This document shows, in pieces, positions 5,181 to 19,989 of a stretch of DNA of 19,989 bases. The notes beneath the pieces are model-generated. The model searched no databases, was not told the DNA's origin, and saw only the letters and a program-made list of their open reading frames with translations. The translations under genes and the position numbers were made by a program. Origin of the DNA: Deltaproteobacteria bacterium (GTDB taxonomy: Bacteria > Myxococcota_C > UBA6777); NCBI GenBank assembly GCA_002731275.1, contig PCBK01000053.1, positions 100,275 to 120,263 on the forward strand, read 5' to 3'. Positions within the stretch are counted from its first letter, which is position 1; every line of letters begins with the position of its first letter.

Positions 5181-5568
5181 GTACCAAACCTCTTGGAGTG
5201 GGCTTTTGGAAGAGAAGATCTCCTAAAGAGTCTTTGATTTTCGACAAATATACAGTGGTGCGCCTTGAAGTTCAATCGGTCTGGACCTAAGCGGTCGCTG
5301 TTTCTTTTGTCTGATGCGAATAGTGCTTGACTTTTTCACATTCTCATGGCACAACCACCATGAAGTTTGTTGGATCAGCCAAACAAACAACAGAAGACCA
5401 ATTTGGTCACCACAAATGAAATCAGTTCGTTTCCAAAGTGTCTATCCTTCGCCGAGCCTCCTTGAGTGTCTTTGCCTTCGTTATACACCCCACTAAATGA
5501 AAATGATTTTAAATGTGCACAACAGATTTGTGTTGCTGACGTAGATGTCGCAATTTCAGGAGTTTTTG

Positions 5569-5904
5569 ATGAGTAAAAAATTATTTGTTGGTGGTATCAG
5601 CTGGGGAACAAGTGAAGATAAACTGAACGAAGTTTTCGGTCAGTACGGAGAGATCGAAGAAACAAAGATCATCACAGATCGCGAAACTGGTCGTTCACGC
5701 GGTTTTGGTTTTGTCACATTTGTCGATGGTGCTGATGCTGACAATGCAATCCAAGAGCTCAATGGTACCGAACTCGACGGTCGTAACCTCAACGTCAACG
5801 AAGCACGTGAGAGAGCTCCCCGCAGCAACAACAACTACGGTGGCGGCGGCGGTGGCGGCTACAACCGTGGTGGTGGTGGCGGATACAACCGTGGTGGTTG
5901 GTAG
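5569..5904 (+). CDS. RRM-domain glycine-rich RNA-binding protein
   Basis: RNP2 'LFVGGISW' and RNP1 'RGFGFVTF' motifs are present. The C-terminus is NNNYGGGGGGGYNRGGGGGYNRGGW. Start placed at the second ATG (MSKKLFVGG) because CAGGAG lies 6 nt upstream. The track's ATG at 5545 lacks a ribosome-binding site. Confidence 0.85.
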   Translation: MSKKLFVGGISWGTSEDKLNEVFGQYGEIEETKIITDRETGRSRGFGFVTFVDGADADNAIQELNGTELDGRNLNVNEARERAPRSNNNYGGGGGGGYNRGGGGGYNRGGW

Positions 5905-13456: not shown

Positions 13457-14458
13457 ATGTTCAATCGATCTCGTGATATCTTGATGCTCTCAATGGCGTT
13501 GTTTTTTCTCGTCTCGACCTGTTGTGTGGTGTACGCGACACACACAGTCCTCTCCGAAGATGGGAAGTGGGTTGGGGGTGTTGTACGTCACGTGGTCTCG
13601 GATAAGGGGAAGGGGCATCCTGTTGTCGAGCGGCTCGTCGATCGTGTGACGGACAAGATCTTGTCGCGTGTGCTCGCCAAGGATGAGCGACTTCATGTGC
13701 TCCCGCTCGTCGAGAAGATCCTCGATCGGATCTTGCATCGTCTCGTGCAAAAACTCTTCTCAAACGAAGGGGATGTGTTGTTCAAGGGGATCGTCAAGTC
13801 TCCTGAGGTTGAGCACTTCATGAAGAAGGTTGTGGATCATGTCCTGATGAAGCGACAAACGCAGCTCGTAGCGGTTGTCAAAAAGGTCGCGCCTGTCGAT
13901 CTTGCGCGTGTGAGTCGGGGGGTTGTGAGCCATGTCCTGCGTCGAGAGCGCAAGCCACTGATTGCTGTTGTCTCTCGGTTGGTTGGGGAGCTGATGAAGC
14001 AGTCATCAGGTCGAGGTGGCGGGAAGGCGTTGGCGACAGCGGTGATCGATCGGGTGTTTGCAAAGCACCAAAAAAGCCTGACCGAGATCTTGCAGAAGGT
14101 CGCGCCGCTTAACCTCAAAACACTCACACAAAAACTCGTCCAACAGATCCTCAATCGCAACCGCAAAGATATCGCTGACATCGCCCAAAGTATCATTGTG
14201 AAGCTGACCAAGAAGATCCGCCAGGGGGATGTCGAGAAGCTGACCAAGAAGCTCCTCACACAAGTGATTCGTAGACACAAACAAGACATTGTTGATATTG
14301 TCAGGCGGTCCAACAAAACCAATCTTGAGAAGCTACTTCCTCGTGTCACCAAGCGCGTACTCAGGGAGAACAAGAAGCAGATCGTTTACATCGTGCGTGA
14401 GGTGTTAAGGGTCGATTTCGCGAAGCTCCTCAAGCAAACATTTTCCAAAAAGAAATGA
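13457..14458 (+). CDS. Secreted basic protein built of ~33-aa amphipathic helical tandem repeats
   Basis: Start chosen at MFNRSRDILMLSMALFFLVSTCCVVYA (signal peptide) rather than the track's 13262. The body consists of about 10 degenerate repeats such as (V/I)..(K/R)LVQQILNRNRKDI.DI.Q.II and KKLLTQVIRRHKQDIVDIVRR. An 18-bp near-identical DNA repeat 'aagctgaccaagaag' recurs. Confidence 0.65.
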   Translation: MFNRSRDILMLSMALFFLVSTCCVVYATHTVLSEDGKWVGGVVRHVVSDKGKGHPVVERLVDRVTDKILSRVLAKDERLHVLPLVEKILDRILHRLVQKLFSNEGDVLFKGIVKSPEVEHFMKKVVDHVLMKRQTQLVAVVKKVAPVDLARVSRGVVSHVLRRERKPLIAVVSRLVGELMKQSSGRGGGKALATAVIDRVFAKHQKSLTEILQKVAPLNLKTLTQKLVQQILNRNRKDIADIAQSIIVKLTKKIRQGDVEKLTKKLLTQVIRRHKQDIVDIVRRSNKTNLEKLLPRVTKRVLRENKKQIVYIVREVLRVDFAKLLKQTFSKKK

Positions 14459-15738
14459 ACAGCCCTTGTGGGTTTGCTTTCATCGATTCGCCCTGCGCAA
14501 AGCGGGTCTCCTCTGACAAAAAGGAATGCTCTATGTGGTCGATACTTTCATCCTCCCTCCATCTCCTCGTCATCCCTGTCTCTGCGGGCGTGATTGGGTA
14601 TGTGACCAACGTCCTCGCGATCAAGATGATGTTTTATCCCATCGAGTTTACGGGGAAGAAGCCGTACTTTGGTTGGCAGGGGATTATCCCCTCCAAAGCG
14701 ACGAAGATCGCCGGGGATGCCGTTGATATCGTGCTCGCACGTCTGATCAGCGTCACCGAACTTTACACGCGGCTTGATCCTGAAGAGGTCTCTAAAGAGC
14801 TCACACCTGTGCTCAACGAGCTGACCGAGGAGATCGTCGAGAAGGTCGTCTCTGAGGCATATCCAAAGGTGTGGGAGACGATGCCCAAGTCTCTCAAAAA
14901 GAAGACGTTCAACAAGATTCAAAAAGAGATCCCCCATATCATCGAACAAATCGTCGAGGATGTAGAGCTACATATCGAAGAGATCTGTGATGTAAAAGCC
15001 ATCGTGATCGATGCATTCGTGAAGGACAAGAAGCTGCTCAACGAGTTGTTCTTACGTTGTGGTTCAGAGGAGTTTAAGTTTATCGGTCAGTCCGGACTTT
15101 ACTTTGGGTTTTTGTTTGGCGTCCCACAGATGATCGTGTGGTACTTTGTGCAGCCATGGTGGTTGTTACCTGCGGCGGGATTGCTCGTTGGGTATGCCAC
15201 CAACTGGGTCGCGTTAAAGATGGTCTTTGAACCTGTGAACCCTGTGAAGATCGGTCCTTGGGAGTGGCAAGGGCTGTTTTTGAGACGTCAGTCTGAGGTC
15301 TCGGCTGAGTATGCGGAGGTCTTCGCCAAGGAGATCCTCAACGCCAAGAATATTATCAACGCGATTATTCGTGGCCCCGCATCAGACCGACTGTTTATGA
15401 TCATCCAACGTCATCTGAAAGAGGCGATTGATGACACTTCGGGGATGAGCAAACATTTTGTGCAGTTTGTGATTGGGACAGAGCGTTACATCGAGATGAA
15501 GAACAATATCTGCGATGGTTTGATGGATTCACTGCCTAATGAGCTCGGACGAATCCACACTTACGCGGACGAGGCGCTCGATCTCAAAAGAGAGCTGGAG
15601 GATGGCTTAAACTCCTTGAGCCCTGAAGAGTTTGAGGGGATTTTGCACCCTGTTTTCCAGGAGGATGAATGGATTCTGATCGTCGTGGGGGCGTTACTTG
15701 GGATGGCTGCGGGTTTTGCACAACTCTTGATGGTGTAA
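14455..15738 (+). CDS. DUF445 family (YjiN/YheB-like) membrane protein
   Basis: 'GYVTNVLAIKMMFYP...GWQGIIP' at the N-terminus and the second 'GYATNWVALKMVFEP' repeat are typical of DUF445. The ATG overlaps the upstream stop (ATGA), which suggests translational coupling. An alternative start at 14533 (MWSIL) is possible. Confidence 0.7.
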   Translation: MNSPCGFAFIDSPCAKRVSSDKKECSMWSILSSSLHLLVIPVSAGVIGYVTNVLAIKMMFYPIEFTGKKPYFGWQGIIPSKATKIAGDAVDIVLARLISVTELYTRLDPEEVSKELTPVLNELTEEIVEKVVSEAYPKVWETMPKSLKKKTFNKIQKEIPHIIEQIVEDVELHIEEICDVKAIVIDAFVKDKKLLNELFLRCGSEEFKFIGQSGLYFGFLFGVPQMIVWYFVQPWWLLPAAGLLVGYATNWVALKMVFEPVNPVKIGPWEWQGLFLRRQSEVSAEYAEVFAKEILNAKNIINAIIRGPASDRLFMIIQRHLKEAIDDTSGMSKHFVQFVIGTERYIEMKNNICDGLMDSLPNELGRIHTYADEALDLKRELEDGLNSLSPEEFEGILHPVFQEDEWILIVVGALLGMAAGFAQLLMV

Positions 15739-16020
15739 ACCCACACCAAAAGCGGTGTATTCCATGTTCAGTTACAAGCATAAGGGGCGAAAGACCTGGA
15801 CTGTTCTTGCGATGGTGACACATCATCATCACTTTTTGAAGCTACGAATGACGTATGACCACAGCATTCATCATCGCGTAGGGCGGATTTTTCTCGCAAA
15901 AGTCTTCAGGGATATGGGGCGGCTCATCAAAAACTCCACAAAACCATCACGCTAAACAATCGAGACCATCGAAGAAAATAATGGCGAGAGTTTTGTTAAG
16001 TCATGTGTTTGTTGGTTACT

Positions 16021-16511
16021 CTACGTGAATTCGGAAGGTGATATCTGCGTAGTTATTTCGTCTCTTTCCAAATCCTTCAACAACGACGGGTCCACGACAA
16101 AGGTCTTGCCTCTTTTGATAAGAGCAAATTCCTTGGTTGCGCTTGCGTGGGTGAGAAGATCTCGCAAAGATGCATCTCGTATCTTCTTTGAGTGTGTTGT
16201 TGCTGTGATTATGTTCAGTGACACGGTGTCACCCCAAAAATTCAGGTGTGGTGCTTTCTGGATGGGGATGAGCGCCTGTATGTGGGGTTTTGGGTTGAGG
16301 CAGCGACATTTTTTTGCACCGCAAGGTGTGTCAGGTATTGTTCGATCTCTGGGGTATCCATGGTCGTCGGGTGTCTTTTGTTGTGGAACAGGATGAATCT
16401 CTTGATCCAGCCGACATAGGTCTTTTCTGTTGCACGGGAGTACTGCTTCAGGCGGATGGTAGCTCGGACGCGTTCCAACAACTTTCTTTTGGGAGGTTCG
16501 GGGGAGTTCAT
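16021..16511 (-). pseudogene. intI: Integron-integrase-type tyrosine recombinase (IntI-like), frameshifted and 3'-truncated
   Basis: The intact N-terminal 89 codons (16511..16242) give 'LERVRATIRLKQYSRATEKTYVGWIKRFILFHNKRHPTTMDTPEIEQYLTHLAVQKNVAASTQN'. This matches the IntI SAM-like N-domain pattern (R.I..L.YS.RTEQAYV.WV..FI.FH..RHP.....EVE.FL..LA..R.VS.STH.QAL). The frame breaks right after ASTQN. A second frame (about 16230..16021) reads '...IRDASLRDLL...FALIKRGKTFVVDPSLLKDLE', resembling the box I/'GKG.K.R.VPL' patch region. The HxxR and Tyr-containing C-terminal third is absent in all frames downstream. Confidence 0.65.
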
Positions 16512-16599
16512 GTTTTTTTCTTTTCTGTTGTTTGGTTCTTGAGTGAGTTTTTTGTCTTGTGTATGGGCTTAAGCAACAGATGTGCCAGTTGGGGAGCGG

Positions 16600-16716
16600 T
16601 GGATATCCTGAATTTTTTCCCGATATCACACGATATCGATGGATATCGCGAATTAGTTCAAGATATCGCTTGACAGGTGTGCGATATCTGGACATACTCT
16701 GTCGATATCTGGACAA
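16600..16716. promoter_or_regulatory. Phased array of seven GATATC hexamers (two as the 13-bp direct repeat CGATATCTGGACA) upstream of intI, candidate attI/recombinase or regulator binding region. It contains a sigma70-like TTGACA-17-CATACT facing the cassettes
   Basis: GATATC starts at 16602, 16622, 16632, 16642, 16662, 16683 and 16704, with spacings 20, 10, 10, 20, 21 and 21 bp, about one or two helical turns. 'cgatatctggaca' occurs at 16682-94 and 16703-15. TTGACA at 16670-75, 17-nt spacer, CATACT at 16693-98 on the + strand. Confidence 0.5.
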
Positions 16717-16807
16717 CCATCGTGGATGTCACCTAAAAAGCGGACAAACATTGAATGAGTTCAATAGAATAACAAGTTAATTGTTTTATTGAAATTCAGG
16801 GTTTTAT

Positions 16808-16840
16808 TACTTGCATCAAAAAAAAAACGACATCAAAGTC
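16808..16840. terminator. Weak bidirectional hairpin (A10-ACGAC-atcaaa-GTCGT-ATTTTCTT) in the AT-rich leader
   Basis: 5-bp stem flanked by an A-run upstream and a T-run downstream. Could insulate the cassettes from intI-region transcription. The stem is short. Confidence 0.2.
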
Positions 16841-16977
16841 GTATTTTCTTCCATCGGAAAGTTGAAAAGCATGTAAATCTACCTTATATTTTTTTGCTTT
16901 ATAGGTAAAAATATAAAGGTCTACCCAAGGGAAAATTAGCGCAGGCTTACCATATCATCTTTGCTCCTAATAATATC

Positions 16978-17006
16978 TTGACAACAAAACTATATTCGGA
17001 TATTGT
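16978..17006 (+). promoter_or_regulatory. sigma70-like promoter for the ATPase gene
   Basis: TTGACA (16978-83), 17-nt spacer, TATTGT (17001-06). AAGGAGA sits at 17021-27, 6 nt before the ATG at 17034. Confidence 0.35.
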
Positions 17007-17033
17007 TGTGAGTGAAAAAAAAGGAGAACTTTT

Positions 17034-18317
17034 ATGTTCAATCCAGAAAACGGTTTTACTTCAGATGTAATAAAAAGTCCTGACAGGTTTGTAGGAAGAA
17101 CGAATCTTGTGATGAGTTGTCTTCGTGTTCTAAATTCAGAACATAGCCTGATCGTTATTTATGGCAAAAGAGGAGTAGGTAAATCTTCTCTACTTCGCCA
17201 AATCCAGCAAATTGCTACGGGAGATTTCACTCTCCCGAAAAAAATGAGTTTACAATACCTGATATCAGAAAAACAGAGGAAGTATTTAACGGTTTACTAT
17301 CAATGCGATTCATTAATTGATGGTTGTGATGAACTGCTACTAAGGTTAGTAAATGATCAAGATGGAGAAGATGGCCTTCTTCGACTCGTTCCGGATGATG
17401 GTAAAGAATTAGTAGAGTTTTCGAGAGCAAAAAGCGTAAATGCAGGTGCTGATCTAAAAATAGTAAAGTGGGGGACTCAGGGAGTTGAAACATCAAGGTA
17501 TGCAAGGACTGTACCTGGTGACGTTGTCCAAACATTTAGAAATTTTTTGAATTCTATTATCACACACCAGTTAAATAAGTATGGGAAAGACGGGATTCTT
17601 ATACTTATCGACGAGTTTGATGTGATTAAAAACAAACATGGAATAGGGTCATTGATAAAGTCCTTAACTTCAGACAAAATAAAATTTGCTATATGTGGTA
17701 TTGCAGATGATGTAAGTTCTCTTGTCGAGGATCATCACTCTGTCGAAAGGTTACTTGAAGAAGGTTCAATGCCTGTTCTCCAAATGCCACATAGTGAATG
17801 TTTGCAAATTTTAAACAGAGCAGAGGAACTTTTTGACAACGAAATTAAATTTGTAGGAGAGGCAAAGGAGAAAATATCTCAACTGAGTTCAGGTTACCCT
17901 TATCTTGTTCAACTGTTTGGTAAAGCGTGCATTCATGAATTAAATAAATATGGAAAAAGTGAGGTCGATGAGTTCGTATTGAATGCCGTACTTAATGCTA
18001 TAAAAAAAGGTGAAGCATTTCCCAGTCTTGAAACTAAATATCAAAGAGCCATTGGGAATTCAGAACAACGACAACTTTTGCTGCATCTATTGTCTGAAGA
18101 AGAAGATAATAGGGAGCAACAAGATTTGGAAATGGGATTGGTCTATTTGAAAAACGTTCGAAAAGAGGCTGTAGGTTTAGAAATAGAGAATATGGACCAA
18201 ATCATCCCAAGATTGGTAGATAAAAAATATGGACCAGTTTTAAGTAAAATTCGAAAAGGTGTATACGAATTCGTTGATCCTGTATTCAGAATATATGTGA
18301 ACCTCAGGGAATTGTAA
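17034..18317 (+). CDS. P-loop NTPase of the AAA+/ATPase_2 (PF01637-like, 'archaeal-type' orphan ATPase) class
   Basis: 'FVGRTNLVMSCLRVLNSEHSLIVIYGKRGVGKSSLL' matches the ATPase_2 N-terminal signature (F.gR..el..L.......vI.G.RR.GKTsLl), including Walker A. Walker B 'ILILIDEFD'. A sensor-like 'SGYPYLVQLFG' corresponds to the family's GG.PyyLq motif. About 38% GC with a strong ribosome-binding site. Confidence 0.75.
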   Translation: MFNPENGFTSDVIKSPDRFVGRTNLVMSCLRVLNSEHSLIVIYGKRGVGKSSLLRQIQQIATGDFTLPKKMSLQYLISEKQRKYLTVYYQCDSLIDGCDELLLRLVNDQDGEDGLLRLVPDDGKELVEFSRAKSVNAGADLKIVKWGTQGVETSRYARTVPGDVVQTFRNFLNSIITHQLNKYGKDGILILIDEFDVIKNKHGIGSLIKSLTSDKIKFAICGIADDVSSLVEDHHSVERLLEEGSMPVLQMPHSECLQILNRAEELFDNEIKFVGEAKEKISQLSSGYPYLVQLFGKACIHELNKYGKSEVDEFVLNAVLNAIKKGEAFPSLETKYQRAIGNSEQRQLLLHLLSEEEDNREQQDLEMGLVYLKNVRKEAVGLEIENMDQIIPRLVDKKYGPVLSKIRKGVYEFVDPVFRIYVNLREL

Positions 18318-18470
18318 GAATCAAGGAGCAACTTAGCGATGAACAAGTCGTTGGAGCGAACATGCCAGGGCACATTCGGTAAAGTCGTTTTCCTACACGA
18401 TATGAAGAGATCCTCAACTACACAAAGAGCCCTGTCATATGCGCTCAACTCAGGCGTTATGTTCTGAAGG
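18318..18470. repeat. attC-like cassette-boundary element, copy A (complete). The first ~75 bp are shared with copy B and the whole is a ~127-bp imperfect nested palindrome
   Basis: 18334-18393 is about 83% identical to 19750-19809, and both contain GTTGGAGCGAACATG. The outer inverted repeat is TGAACAAGTCGTTGGAGCG (18340-58) against CGCTCAACTCAGGCGTTATGTTCTG (18442-66). The inner inverted repeat is GAACATGCCAGGGC (18358-71) against GCCCTGTCATATGC (18429-42), 11/14 complementary. It lies immediately 3' of the ATPase stop. Confidence 0.45.
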
Positions 18471-18760
18471 AGAAAGAGTAAACGCCTGACATAGGCGCAA
18501 TATCAGCAGGAATTAGCTCAATAAAGGTTGCAATAGAAATTGCAAAAGACCTTAAAAATGCAACATCATCTCTTAAAGACGCTGAGGTTAAGCTGAAAAT
18601 AGCTGAGTTATTGGAAGCTATGTCTGAAGTAAAGTCGGCAAACACCAACTCCCTTAACATATTTAATGATAAATTTGTCACAGAGAGAGACTCTCTTAGA
18701 GAAAATAATCTACAAAGATATGGTTTAATGGTTTTTATCTAGAGCGTGTCGAAATTTGGC

Positions 18761-18789
18761 TTGAACTGTAATGCTTACCGTGATATAGG
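18761..18789 (+). promoter_or_regulatory. sigma70-like promoter with extended -10 for the EcsC-family gene
   Basis: TTGAAC (18761-66), 17-nt spacer, then TGaTATAGG (TG at 18781-82, -10 at 18784-89). AGGAGG at 18805-10, ATG at 18820. Confidence 0.4.
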
Positions 18790-18819
18790 ATGGAAAAATA
18801 ATATAGGAGGACCTGTGAA

Positions 18820-19638
18820 ATGAGTACTGCACTTTCACAATATGAGAGAACGGCATTGCAAGAGATCAATGATTGGAAAAGTCCTGAAGAGCAAACTTGG
18901 TTTGGTGCAATTGCCAATGCTGTGTCTTATCCTTTCGATTTGGCAGGAGATGCAGTCATGTCAATTCCAGGAGCACAGACTGCTGTAGAAAAAACTGTGG
19001 GAGGACTCATCTCTCTGCTTAATGATGCTGCACAGTGGAGTATTCCTGCAAACTCAGCTGTCGAATATTACAAAGGAAAAAAGCGCTCTGTAAACAATCG
19101 CAAAGATATTTTCAAACTTGATTTGGAAGAAATAGATGAAGCTATATCTTATACCGGAGCAAAGTACAGGGCTCTTGCTGCAGCGGAGGGGGCAGGAGCT
19201 GGGGCAGTAGGAGTTATTGGTATCCCCGTTGATATTGTAGCACTGGTTGCGATGAATCTGAGAGCGATAGGTGAATATGGAACCTACTGTGGATTTGATA
19301 TGTCAAAAGAACATGAGCGCCTCTTTGCAATGAGAATACTTGGAGTAAGTTCGAGCCCAACTGATGCTGCAAAACAGGTTGCCTTAGCTCAACTTACAAA
19401 AATAGGGAAAGAAGTTGCAAAAAAACAAACTTGGAAGCAATTGGAAAGGCATGGCTTTGTTCGATTAATTCAAGAGATTGCAAAATCACTAGGAATTCGA
19501 CTGACAAAAGCAAAGCTTGCTCAAATCTTACCAGGTGTTGGAGCCGTAATTGGAGGTGGATTCAACGCGTATTATACAGGAAAAACATGTACAACTGCAT
19601 ACTATATGTACAGGGAAAGATTTCTTTTGGAAAAGTAG
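18820..19638 (+). CDS. EcsC-family protein (PF12787-like)
   Basis: N-terminal 'LSQYERTALQEINDWKSPE' matches the EcsC 'E..AL.EI..W' pattern. There is a central Gly/Ala-rich 'AAAEGAGAGAVGVIGIPVDIVALVA' segment. The C-terminal 'LPGVGAVIGGGFNAYYTGKTCTTAYYMYRERF' matches the family's conserved 'IP.IGA.IGGG.N...T.......A...FR' tail. Identification is from memory of the family, not a search. Confidence 0.6.
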   Translation: MSTALSQYERTALQEINDWKSPEEQTWFGAIANAVSYPFDLAGDAVMSIPGAQTAVEKTVGGLISLLNDAAQWSIPANSAVEYYKGKKRSVNNRKDIFKLDLEEIDEAISYTGAKYRALAAAEGAGAGAVGVIGIPVDIVALVAMNLRAIGEYGTYCGFDMSKEHERLFAMRILGVSSSPTDAAKQVALAQLTKIGKEVAKKQTWKQLERHGFVRLIQEIAKSLGIRLTKAKLAQILPGVGAVIGGGFNAYYTGKTCTTAYYMYRERFLLEK

Positions 19639-19732
19639 AAAGAGAGTGTTCTTGATTACAAGTGAGAGATTTTGGATGTCACTACTCCTCTTTCACCATG
19701 AAAAGAATGAAAAGATAAATCGATTTGTAAGC

Positions 19733-19809
19733 AATACAATAAAGCAATTAAGCGGTGAACAAATCGTTGGAGCGAACATGTCAGGGCATAGTCGACAAAC
19801 CCATTTTCC
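19733..19809. repeat. attC-like cassette-boundary element, copy B, 3'-truncated by IS insertion
   Basis: Aligns with the 5' ~75 bp of copy A through '...cattttcc', then abruptly becomes GTAACCGGGCGAGC, the IS66-type terminal repeat. It is the only reason the 87-aa ORF 19550..19813 stays open. Confidence 0.45.
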
Positions 19810-19989
19810 GTAACCGGGCGAGCTAGAACGTCTTGAAAAGGAAATGAAAAGAAAAGAAGCAAGCTCCTTCAAAATATCAAACCGAAGGAGAAAAAATATG
19901 GCTTACAATCGTTCCGAACACTGGCGACCAATCATCGAGCAATTCGAAGTCTCTGGCCTTACGCAAAGTGACTTCGCCGAGCAACACGA
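19810..19989 (+). mobile_element. IS66-family insertion sequence, left end (IRL plus start of tnpA). It continues beyond the window
   Basis: GTAACCGGGCGAGC at 19810 resembles the IS66-family 'GTAAGCG...' terminal inverted repeat. 88 bp later, AAGGAG with a 7-nt spacer precedes an ATG whose product 'MAYNRSEHWRPIIEQFEVSGLTQSDFAEQH...' fits the IS66 TnpA accessory-protein N-terminus (W..II..F..SGL.Q..F....GI). Confidence 0.5.
19898..19989 (+). CDS. tnpA: IS66-family TnpA (orfA) N-terminal 30 codons, partial
   Basis: See the mobile-element entry above. Helix-turn-helix-like 'SGLTQSDFAEQH' segment. The ORF runs off the window end. Confidence 0.45.
   Translation, partial: MAYNRSEHWRPIIEQFEVSGLTQSDFAEQH

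Follow-up and report, generated by a model that had tools for sequence, protein, structure and literature searches.

The window (the whole stretch of DNA analysed, 19,989 nucleotides) carries an integron-like locus, in which the remnant of an integrase gene, read from the minus strand, is separated by an array of palindromic GATATC hexamers from an attI site and its cassettes. The elements on either side of the array are:

16287 to 16511, minus strand: intI remnant of 75 codons, encoding a SAM-like N-terminal domain (Pfam Phage_int_SAM_4, E 4e-24).
16735 to 16778, plus strand: attI proper, ending AACAAG/TT and holding the palindrome ATTGAA-TGAG-TTCAAT; with 1 change in 44 bp relative to allele L314, it is the most conserved stretch.
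16777 to 18456, plus strand: first cassette, with a CDS at 17034-18317 for a 427-aa STAND/AAA_16-like ATPase, 330 bp from the array.
18338 to 18462, plus strand: attC of the first cassette, with R'' GATGAAC, L'' GTTGGAGC, L' GCTCAAC and R' GTTATGT.

The reading frame containing the intI remnant is 89 codons long (16242-16511, minus strand). Past the first 75 residues it shows no homology to integron integrases, and no integrase catalytic domain was found in any frame of 15740-16290, the 550 bp beyond the remnant. Since the homology ends at residue 75 and a catalytic domain was not found, the adjacent "intI" is, judging from its coding content, a truncated pseudogene, and not the intact integrase of an integron platform; in another allele, L309, the remnant carries frameshifting indels. 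The earlier note had placed the array upstream of intI: the location stands, the array being situated between intI and attI in an integron-like locus, while the gene itself is reduced to 75 codons.

The homology to intI stops right after the AASTQN codons (16287-16292, minus strand; the DNA ends ...CAAAAC at the break). A break at the AASTQN codon is also seen in unrelated intI-like ORFs from other environments (L036, L043, P0009, P0014-P0016, P0018 and P0027), two of which, P0014 and P0015, share a common foreign tail past it; most of 80 metagenome intI relatives continue normally beyond this point. Inside intI, the AASTQN codons might be a secondary site at which recombination or insertion recurs.

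The attI crossover was located between G16776 and T16777 by comparison with L314, an allele whose sequence diverges right after the GTT at 16776-16778; the crossover is therefore G16776/TT, and attI has the array on its platform side. Both marks of an attI site are present, namely a G/TT crossover and different cassettes downstream of it in different strains. The array falls between the intI remnant and this crossover, with its GATATC sites 46-174 bp from G16776. The attC of the first cassette reads GATGAAC-AAGTC-GTTGGAGC...GCTCAAC-TCAGGC-GTTATGT, a 28-nt imperfect inverted repeat with the organization expected of attC. Its 5' half recurs from about 19754, in the attC of a second cassette, which encodes an EcsC-family protein (18820-19638). 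The G+C content drops from about 0.48 to 0.36 on the cassette side of the array. An Rfam scan of the window produced no match.

Several other features of the window were recorded. The EcsC-family protein (18820-19638) matches the PADLOC candidates PDC-S29/S30 (E 4e-11). The GenBank allele L001 departs from the window at 19906 onward and carries there, instead, a DUF1016 cassette, whose product (L001, 172-1206), a DUF1016/YhcG PD-(D/E)xK nuclease, matches PDC-S02 (E 2e-156). The cassettes look like anti-phage defence candidates. After the second cassette, at 19899-19989 and on into L307 (5866-6171), lies a 101-aa ORF with a weak match to HTH_Tnp_1 (E 6e-4, below the Pfam cutoff); many contigs stop near 19899-19989, consistent with a repeated insertion sequence. 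Far to the left, at 5545-5904, a 119-aa protein clearly matches the RNA recognition motif (RRM_1, E 2e-24), which is uncommon among bacterial proteins. The nearest relatives of the neighbouring DUF445 protein are found in Myxococcota and in Myxococcales MAGs.

The array itself is composed of the following elements, the palindromic ones being given without strand:

16602 to 16607, no strand: GATATC site 1, context gtgGATATCc; unchanged in allele L002.
16622 to 16627, no strand: GATATC site 2, context cCGATATCa; unchanged in L002.
16632 to 16637, no strand: GATATC site 3, context CGATATCG; centre of the 66-bp dyad.
16642 to 16647, no strand: GATATC site 4, context tgGATATCG.
16662 to 16667, no strand: GATATC site 5, ending 2 bp before the -35 hexamer and within the local palindrome TCAAGATATCGCTTGA; intact in L314, GATCTC in L002.
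16683 to 16688, no strand: GATATC site 6, within the 17-bp promoter spacer; GATATT in L314.
16704 to 16709, no strand: GATATC site 7, on the expected transcription start; intact in L314.
16725 to 16730, no strand: degenerate site 8, GATGTC, 21 bp past site 7 and in the same register; lost in L314.
16602 to 16667, no strand: 66-bp imperfect palindrome holding sites 1-5, with 33-nt arms that are 76% complementary and site 3 at its centre.
16682 to 16723, plus strand: two 21-bp direct units (D2, 76% identity), each opening with the exact 13-mer CGATATCTGGACA.
16670 to 16698, plus strand: sigma-70-like, Pc-like promoter TTGACA-17-CATACT (10/12 match), inside the array and facing the cassettes.
16650 to 16661, plus strand: copy 1 of the repeat GAAT(T/G)AGTTCAA, GAATTAGTTCAA, adjoining site 5 in the array, with a core-like GTT.
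16753 to 16764, plus strand: copy 2 of the same repeat, GAATGAGTTCAA, within attI.

The seven perfect hexamers claimed by the earlier note within 110 bp were all found in place, starting at 16602, 16622, 16632, 16642, 16662, 16683 and 16704, with spacings of 20, 10, 10, 20, 21 and 21 bp; together with the degenerate GATGTC, the eight sites span 129 bp. The window contains 15 GATATC in all, compared to 3.0 +/- 1.7 in dinucleotide-preserving shuffles, none of which, out of 200, reached 15. When the background rate is taken from the other 8 GATATC of the window (about 19.9 kb), 110 bp would contain 7 or more with a probability of 6e-14, which becomes about 1e-11 for the window as a whole. Helical phasing was evaluated by the Rayleigh statistic R, which is 0.97 for a helical repeat of 10.2 bp and 0.80 for one of 10.5 bp; when the repeat was scanned from 10 to 11 bp, a phasing as good as the observed one was reached in only 2 of 20,000 random placements. 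Both clustering and phasing are far beyond chance, and the claim that the sites lie on one face of the helix is borne out.

The array was in part built by duplication. The 66-bp palindrome corresponds to two direct 31-nt units 40 bp apart (16597-16627 and 16637-16667; D1, 77% identity), and the exact 13-bp direct repeat pointed out previously is confirmed at 16682-16694 and 16703-16715, CGATATCTGGACA in both cases. The bottom strand of the 66-bp dyad is predicted to fold at -16.2 kcal/mol (z -4.3); an attC-like hairpin was considered and discarded for lack of the R/L box pattern, and the fold is attributed to the palindromic arrangement of the sites. The hexamer is the sole element common to all sites of the array.

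A layout of this kind could have no present function at all, being either a by-product of tandem duplication, in units of 40 and 21 bp, or an operator orphaned by the loss of its regulator and drifting within an integron relic. The visibly duplicated units (77% identity for D1, 76% for D2) and the decay of the integrase into a pseudogene agree with such an origin, which is nevertheless considered quite unlikely on the following grounds. Within the duplicated units, no hexamer position differs (0/18), against 12 of the 34 remaining positions (35%; p 0.003), so that the hexamers stayed unchanged while the spacers diverged. GATATC also sits in at least four flanking contexts which duplication does not explain (that of site 3, and those of the site 1/4, site 2/5 and site 6/7 types), and the helical register is maintained across the boundaries of the duplicated units.

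As reported in the earlier note, a -35/-10 pair aimed at the cassettes, TTGACA-17-CATACT, is found within the array at 16670-16698. Its physiological importance is uncertain, given two elements further downstream: a weak bidirectional terminator-like hairpin (A10-ACGACATCAAAGTCGT-T-rich) at 16827-16842, 50 bp into the first cassette, and a separate promoter-like sequence, TTGACA-17-TATTGT, at 16978-17006, just ahead of the ATPase gene. Because of this hairpin and of the promoter-like site of the cassette itself, transcripts starting within the array may not reach the ATPase gene.

The second repeat of the region, GAAT(T/G)AGTTCAA, contains a core-like AGTTCAA which resembles the crossover sequence AGTTAAT. 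Its first copy (16650-16661) becomes GAATGAGTTCAA in L002 and GAGTGAGTTCAA in L314, with a T-to-G change at 16654 common to both. These copies, and not GATATC, could be the integrase-type sites of the locus.

Natural alleles were used in order to evaluate which parts of the array are preserved. The ATPase cassette and the DUF445 gene are present on many contigs from independent marine metagenomes, most of which are identical to the window across the array. In L314 (3171-5291), the chromosomal backbone is nearly identical up to 16292, 16293-16646 is missing, and the match resumes at 16647-16778 with 88.6% identity, before the sequence passes into a different gene. This allele has therefore neither the intI remnant nor sites 1-4, possibly because of an unequal crossover between 40-bp units, and its first cassette encodes a 419-aa protein with no Pfam match. 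Five of its eight sites are lost, with site 6 reading GATATT and only two hexamers (5 and 7) intact, and both promoter and attI are retained; since these persist in spite of the lost sites, the full array is dispensable, at least in the L314 lineage. The changes are unevenly distributed, affecting 1 of 44 positions in the attI-proximal part and 14 of 88 in the array part (p 0.015); both promoter hexamers are unaltered, in an array part which elsewhere has diverged by 16%.

The L002/L315 allele (aligned over 13696-16672) does not differ from the window as far as 16555; past this position it has diverged by about 10%, with sites 1-4 kept. In L309, compared over 16182-19989, the left-hand context is different and the remnant shows 31 differences (about 9%), including the frameshifting indels, followed by complete identity from 16520 to the end of the window. 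As the array is intact where the remnant is frameshifted, any function of the array is independent of the adjacent integrase. The population structure is mosaic, and its breaks separate the start of intI from the array, as though array, attI and cassettes were exchanged together.

When L002 and L314 are considered together, changes are found at 2 of 49 hexamer positions and at 18 of 100 other array positions (Fisher one-sided p 0.014); adding the promoter hexamers to the first class gives 2 of 64 and a p-value of 0.003. The tests are based on few substitutions and two alleles. The numbers are small, and both comparisons, between alleles and between duplicated units, agree in direction, suggesting that the hexamers, together with the promoter, are what is preserved. 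Hexamers changing less than spacers are what is expected for protein-binding sites, and the same bias across alleles weighs against an array without function; the existence of site-loss alleles (L314 with its two perfect hexamers, L002 without site 5) is on the side of the latter.

The reading tentatively preferred here, to which slightly less than even confidence is given, is that of a cooperative operator for a putative dimeric DNA-binding protein gating the cassette promoter. We infer in this way the binding itself, the type of protein, and the repression that would follow from binding. Dimers would each read one 6-bp GATATC palindrome within a single major groove, as ribbon-helix-helix-type repressors do, and would align on one helix face along about 130 bp. 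Occupancy of sites 5, 6 and 7, placed at the -35 flank, in the spacer and at the transcription start, should shut off transcription into attI and the cassettes. The dyad of sites 1-4, nearer to the start of intI, may originally have covered also the divergent intI promoter region, and the high number of sites would make the response steep and switch-like. A usual helix-turn-helix dimer spans two major grooves and a ribbon-helix-helix dimer reads one; a reader of the latter type is proposed because a 6-bp palindrome seems too short for the former. The general idea of cooperative protein binding, advanced in the earlier note, thus holds up, with phasing, promoter overlap and the better conservation of hexamers over spacers in its favour; the part of it which concerned arm-type sites for IntI does not, as discussed below.

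No candidate gene for the binding protein was found in the 20-kb window, in its flanks, in the neighbouring cassettes or among the allele-specific genes. A literature search for GATATC operators returned no regulator recognising GATATC repeats, and we know of none. The IntI N-terminal fragment was considered as a binder and rejected, its ORF being frameshifted in L309, where the array is identical. LexA boxes were sought by eye, and the consensuses CTGT-N8-ACAG, GAAC-N4-GTTC and the Myxococcus-type CTRHAMRYBYGTTCAGS, which may not be those of this lineage, all matched at no more than about 60%. CRP/MrpC and ArgR boxes, also compared by eye, gave no convincing fit to the array.

Dam, acting with Lrp or OxyR at pap and agn43, provides examples of methylation switches with sites clustered over a promoter. 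By analogy with such Dam-dependent switches, sites clustered and phased over a promoter might form a methylation-sensitive epigenetic switch, in which an EcoRV-type adenine methyltransferase would compete with a binding protein, leading to heritable ON and OFF states of the cassette promoter. This explanation is regarded as very improbable: neither the window nor its flanks encode a methyltransferase or a restriction enzyme, and the switch would still require the same putative binding protein as the operator reading. Moreover, GATATC is not avoided, with 8 other sites in about 19.9 kb and about 1 per kb in related genomes, and a sequence undepleted in both gives no pointer to an EcoRV-like restriction system. 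On the opposite side, GATATC is a classical restriction-modification target (PMC4081073).

The occurrence of the array in other genomes was analyzed starting from 80 metagenome loci encoding relatives of the IntI N-terminal region, 51-73% identical. None of them had more than two GATATC upstream of intI, and their most frequent hexamer, whatever its sequence, occurred at most 5 times, compared to 7 here. Mild enrichment of a hexamer (p <= 0.035) was found in about 8 of 68 related loci, as against 1 of 54 control segments. The nearest relatives, identified through DUF445 orthologues 73-77% identical, have neither an integron nor the array at the syntenic locus. Conservation in relatives, on which the earlier note had made its proposal depend, was thus not observed, and the array is kept within the population of the species. 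Because of this absence, both at the 80 intI loci and at the syntenic locus of the relatives, the array is, as far as these sequences tell, specific to the population or lineage of this MAG, a restriction that also fits the view of a non-functional array.

A BLAST search of 16540-16800 against plasmid and phage records produced chance-level matches only. Pattern scans for phased GATATC triples identified 83 and 24 stretches in viruses, and at least 118 in prokaryotic genomes. Among the matches listed, most were exact tandem or coding repeats, and none of the genome stretches listed encoded an IntI relative; the occurrence of phased GATATC as plain tandem repeats in many unrelated genomes again agrees with an array devoid of function. 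In Bacillaceae (Virgibacillus, Oceanobacillus, Bacillus fonticola and others) and in a few other genomes, intergenic GT(C/T)GATATC or CGCGGATATC is found every 20 bp, at loci including L233, L207, L218, L240, L201 and L249, with spacers partly variable and, in some genomes, many copies. These intergenic arrays were examined as a clue to the binding protein, and discarded: they sit among housekeeping genes and pointed to none.

Some of the related intI loci contain repeats of other types. In L028, four copies of GTAGATCTAC at 41, 20 and 24 bp lie between -151 and -66 relative to the start of intI. The repeats of L029 are inverted, number six, have a period of 40-41 bp and end at GTTAGCT, and L048 has about 8 copies of TCCAAATGAYTTGGA every 21 bp. 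Paired palindromes are found in L031, and a 60-bp palindrome bounded by GATATC in L064 and L043; that of L064, where IntI is intact, ends 5 bp from GTTAGTT. A minority of related environmental integrons thus appear to carry phased arrays of their own between intI and a candidate GTT core. A sequence shared by the window and L028 beside their palindromes, CCTGAATT, was discarded, about 0.5 such coincidences being expected by chance.

The position of these arrays bears on a further explanation, in which the phased sites would form an accessory module for recombination, binding a host architectural factor, or an integrase provided in trans, so that DNA is bent or wrapped to assist or direct attI x attC synapsis, in the manner of DR1/DR2 of attI1 or of the accessory sequences of cer and psi. 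The array of the window fills the intI-attI interval and ends about 46-67 bp from the crossover G16776/TT, and those of L028, L029, L031, L048 and L064 occupy the same position, abutting the candidate GTT core. This role is judged unlikely. GATATC, lacking GTT/AAC, is unlike the attI core, the R and L boxes of attC and the repeats of the attI1 type (GTTACGC, GTTATGG), so that the arm-type or accessory IntI sites suggested initially find no sequence support; to our knowledge, no IntI protein possesses a distinct domain for arm binding. The integrase next to the array is dead and in decay, and the 44 bp proximal to attI are far better conserved than the array (1/44 versus 14/88). L314, which has a different first cassette, keeps two intact hexamers only, and even the mild hexamer enrichment is limited to about 8 of 68 related loci. 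Literature data are more favourable to an accessory module: attI1 contains two extra IntI1 sites favouring attI x attC recombination, and V. cholerae IntIA seems to require a host factor not yet identified (PMC8946536).

A broader proposal may be formulated from the same loci, and is considered distinctly improbable, namely that phased, lineage-specific palindrome arrays between intI and attI are a general, undescribed accessory module of environmental chromosomal integrons, each recruiting a cognate factor, encoded by the host or by the element, which would couple the activity of the cassette promoter to the accessibility of attI. If this were true, the arrays would be candidates for the "missing host factor" of sedentary integrons, and array, attI and cassettes would be swapped as a single module from strain to strain.

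What is understood of how chromosomal integrons are regulated, and of their need for host factors, comes from few models, class 1 and Vibrio cholerae, and involves LexA, CRP and nucleoid proteins. Here, the whole intI-attI interval is taken by a phased array of one short palindrome, arranged around the cassette promoter. In the operator reading preferred above, the array would point to a dedicated, switch-like control of cassette expression or of attI access, in an uncultured marine Myxococcota-like deltaproteobacterium. A protein found to bind it would represent a new type of input for integron control, and would help to explain why certain platforms are active in no host but their own. What limits the observation is that the local integrase is dead, that the motif is confined to one population and that no binder was found.

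Phased arrays are familiar from other systems. The cer and psi sites of Xer recombination have accessory sequences of about 180 bp next to a tyrosine-recombinase core, and parC is a multi-copy phased array flanking a promoter; by analogy, the present locus could be compared to either, as a phased region of 100-180 bp by a core site or as a phased array at a promoter. What sets it apart from them is that motifs for ArgR, ArcA or PepA are lacking, as is a rep or par gene. Iterons had been among the possibilities listed in the earlier note; the absence of a rep or par gene, of similarity to plasmids or phages, and of anything common to the sites other than a 6-bp core, where iterons and parC conserve units of 11-22 bp, does not allow the array to be placed among plasmid iterons or partition centromeres.

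[quoted passage not shown] As in attI1, the repeats analysed here are upstream of the simple site of attI, in the intI-attI interval, and the 21-bp distance of sites 6-8 is close to the DR spacing of about 19 bp. Here, however, the sites are 7-8, palindromic, without GTT, 46-174 bp away and beside a dead integrase, and no core-like 7-mer of the GTTRRRY type, directly oriented and at most about 60 bp from the crossover, was found among them.

The intI-attI interval is a hub of LexA, CRP, FIS, IHF and H-NS sites, with a LexA box at PintI, a CRP box in V. cholerae attIA overlapping the -35 of Pc, and FIS, IHF and H-NS sites in class 1 integrons (PMC8876359). The array shares with them its position, among protein sites between intI and attI which control the divergent promoters of integrase and cassettes; each of the known ones is a lone site, bound by a global regulator whose motif has been defined, and none is a phased multi-palindrome array.

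By analogy of architecture, the closest documented counterpart would be the ccdAB operator of the F plasmid. This operator extends across its promoter for 113 bp and offers eight sites, centred on GTATAC palindromes, to CcdA, a ribbon-helix-helix antitoxin; CcdA occupies them in chains that CcdB bridges, and the multivalent binding results in a digital switch (PMC5389731). Both have about eight sites, over 113 bp in ccdAB and 129 bp in the window, overlapping -35 and -10 elements, from whose number avidity and a switch-like response would follow, and in both the sites are built on 6-bp palindromes of the form G-(A/T)4-C, GTATAC there and GATATC here; many short palindromes, spread over more than 100 bp across a promoter, are thus present in the two cases. 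The genetic context is different: the ccdAB operator lies directly upstream of autoregulated antitoxin and toxin genes, whereas the array is on the platform side of attI, not within a cassette, has no adjoining regulator gene, and no ribbon-helix-helix or toxin-antitoxin gene was found in the window or its flanks. The array, known from sequence alone, has seven perfect hexamers, compared to one perfect and two imperfect GTATAC in ccdAB. Protein-binding sites in the intI-attI interval are already known as a kind, of which a phased palindrome array in many copies is a new variant.
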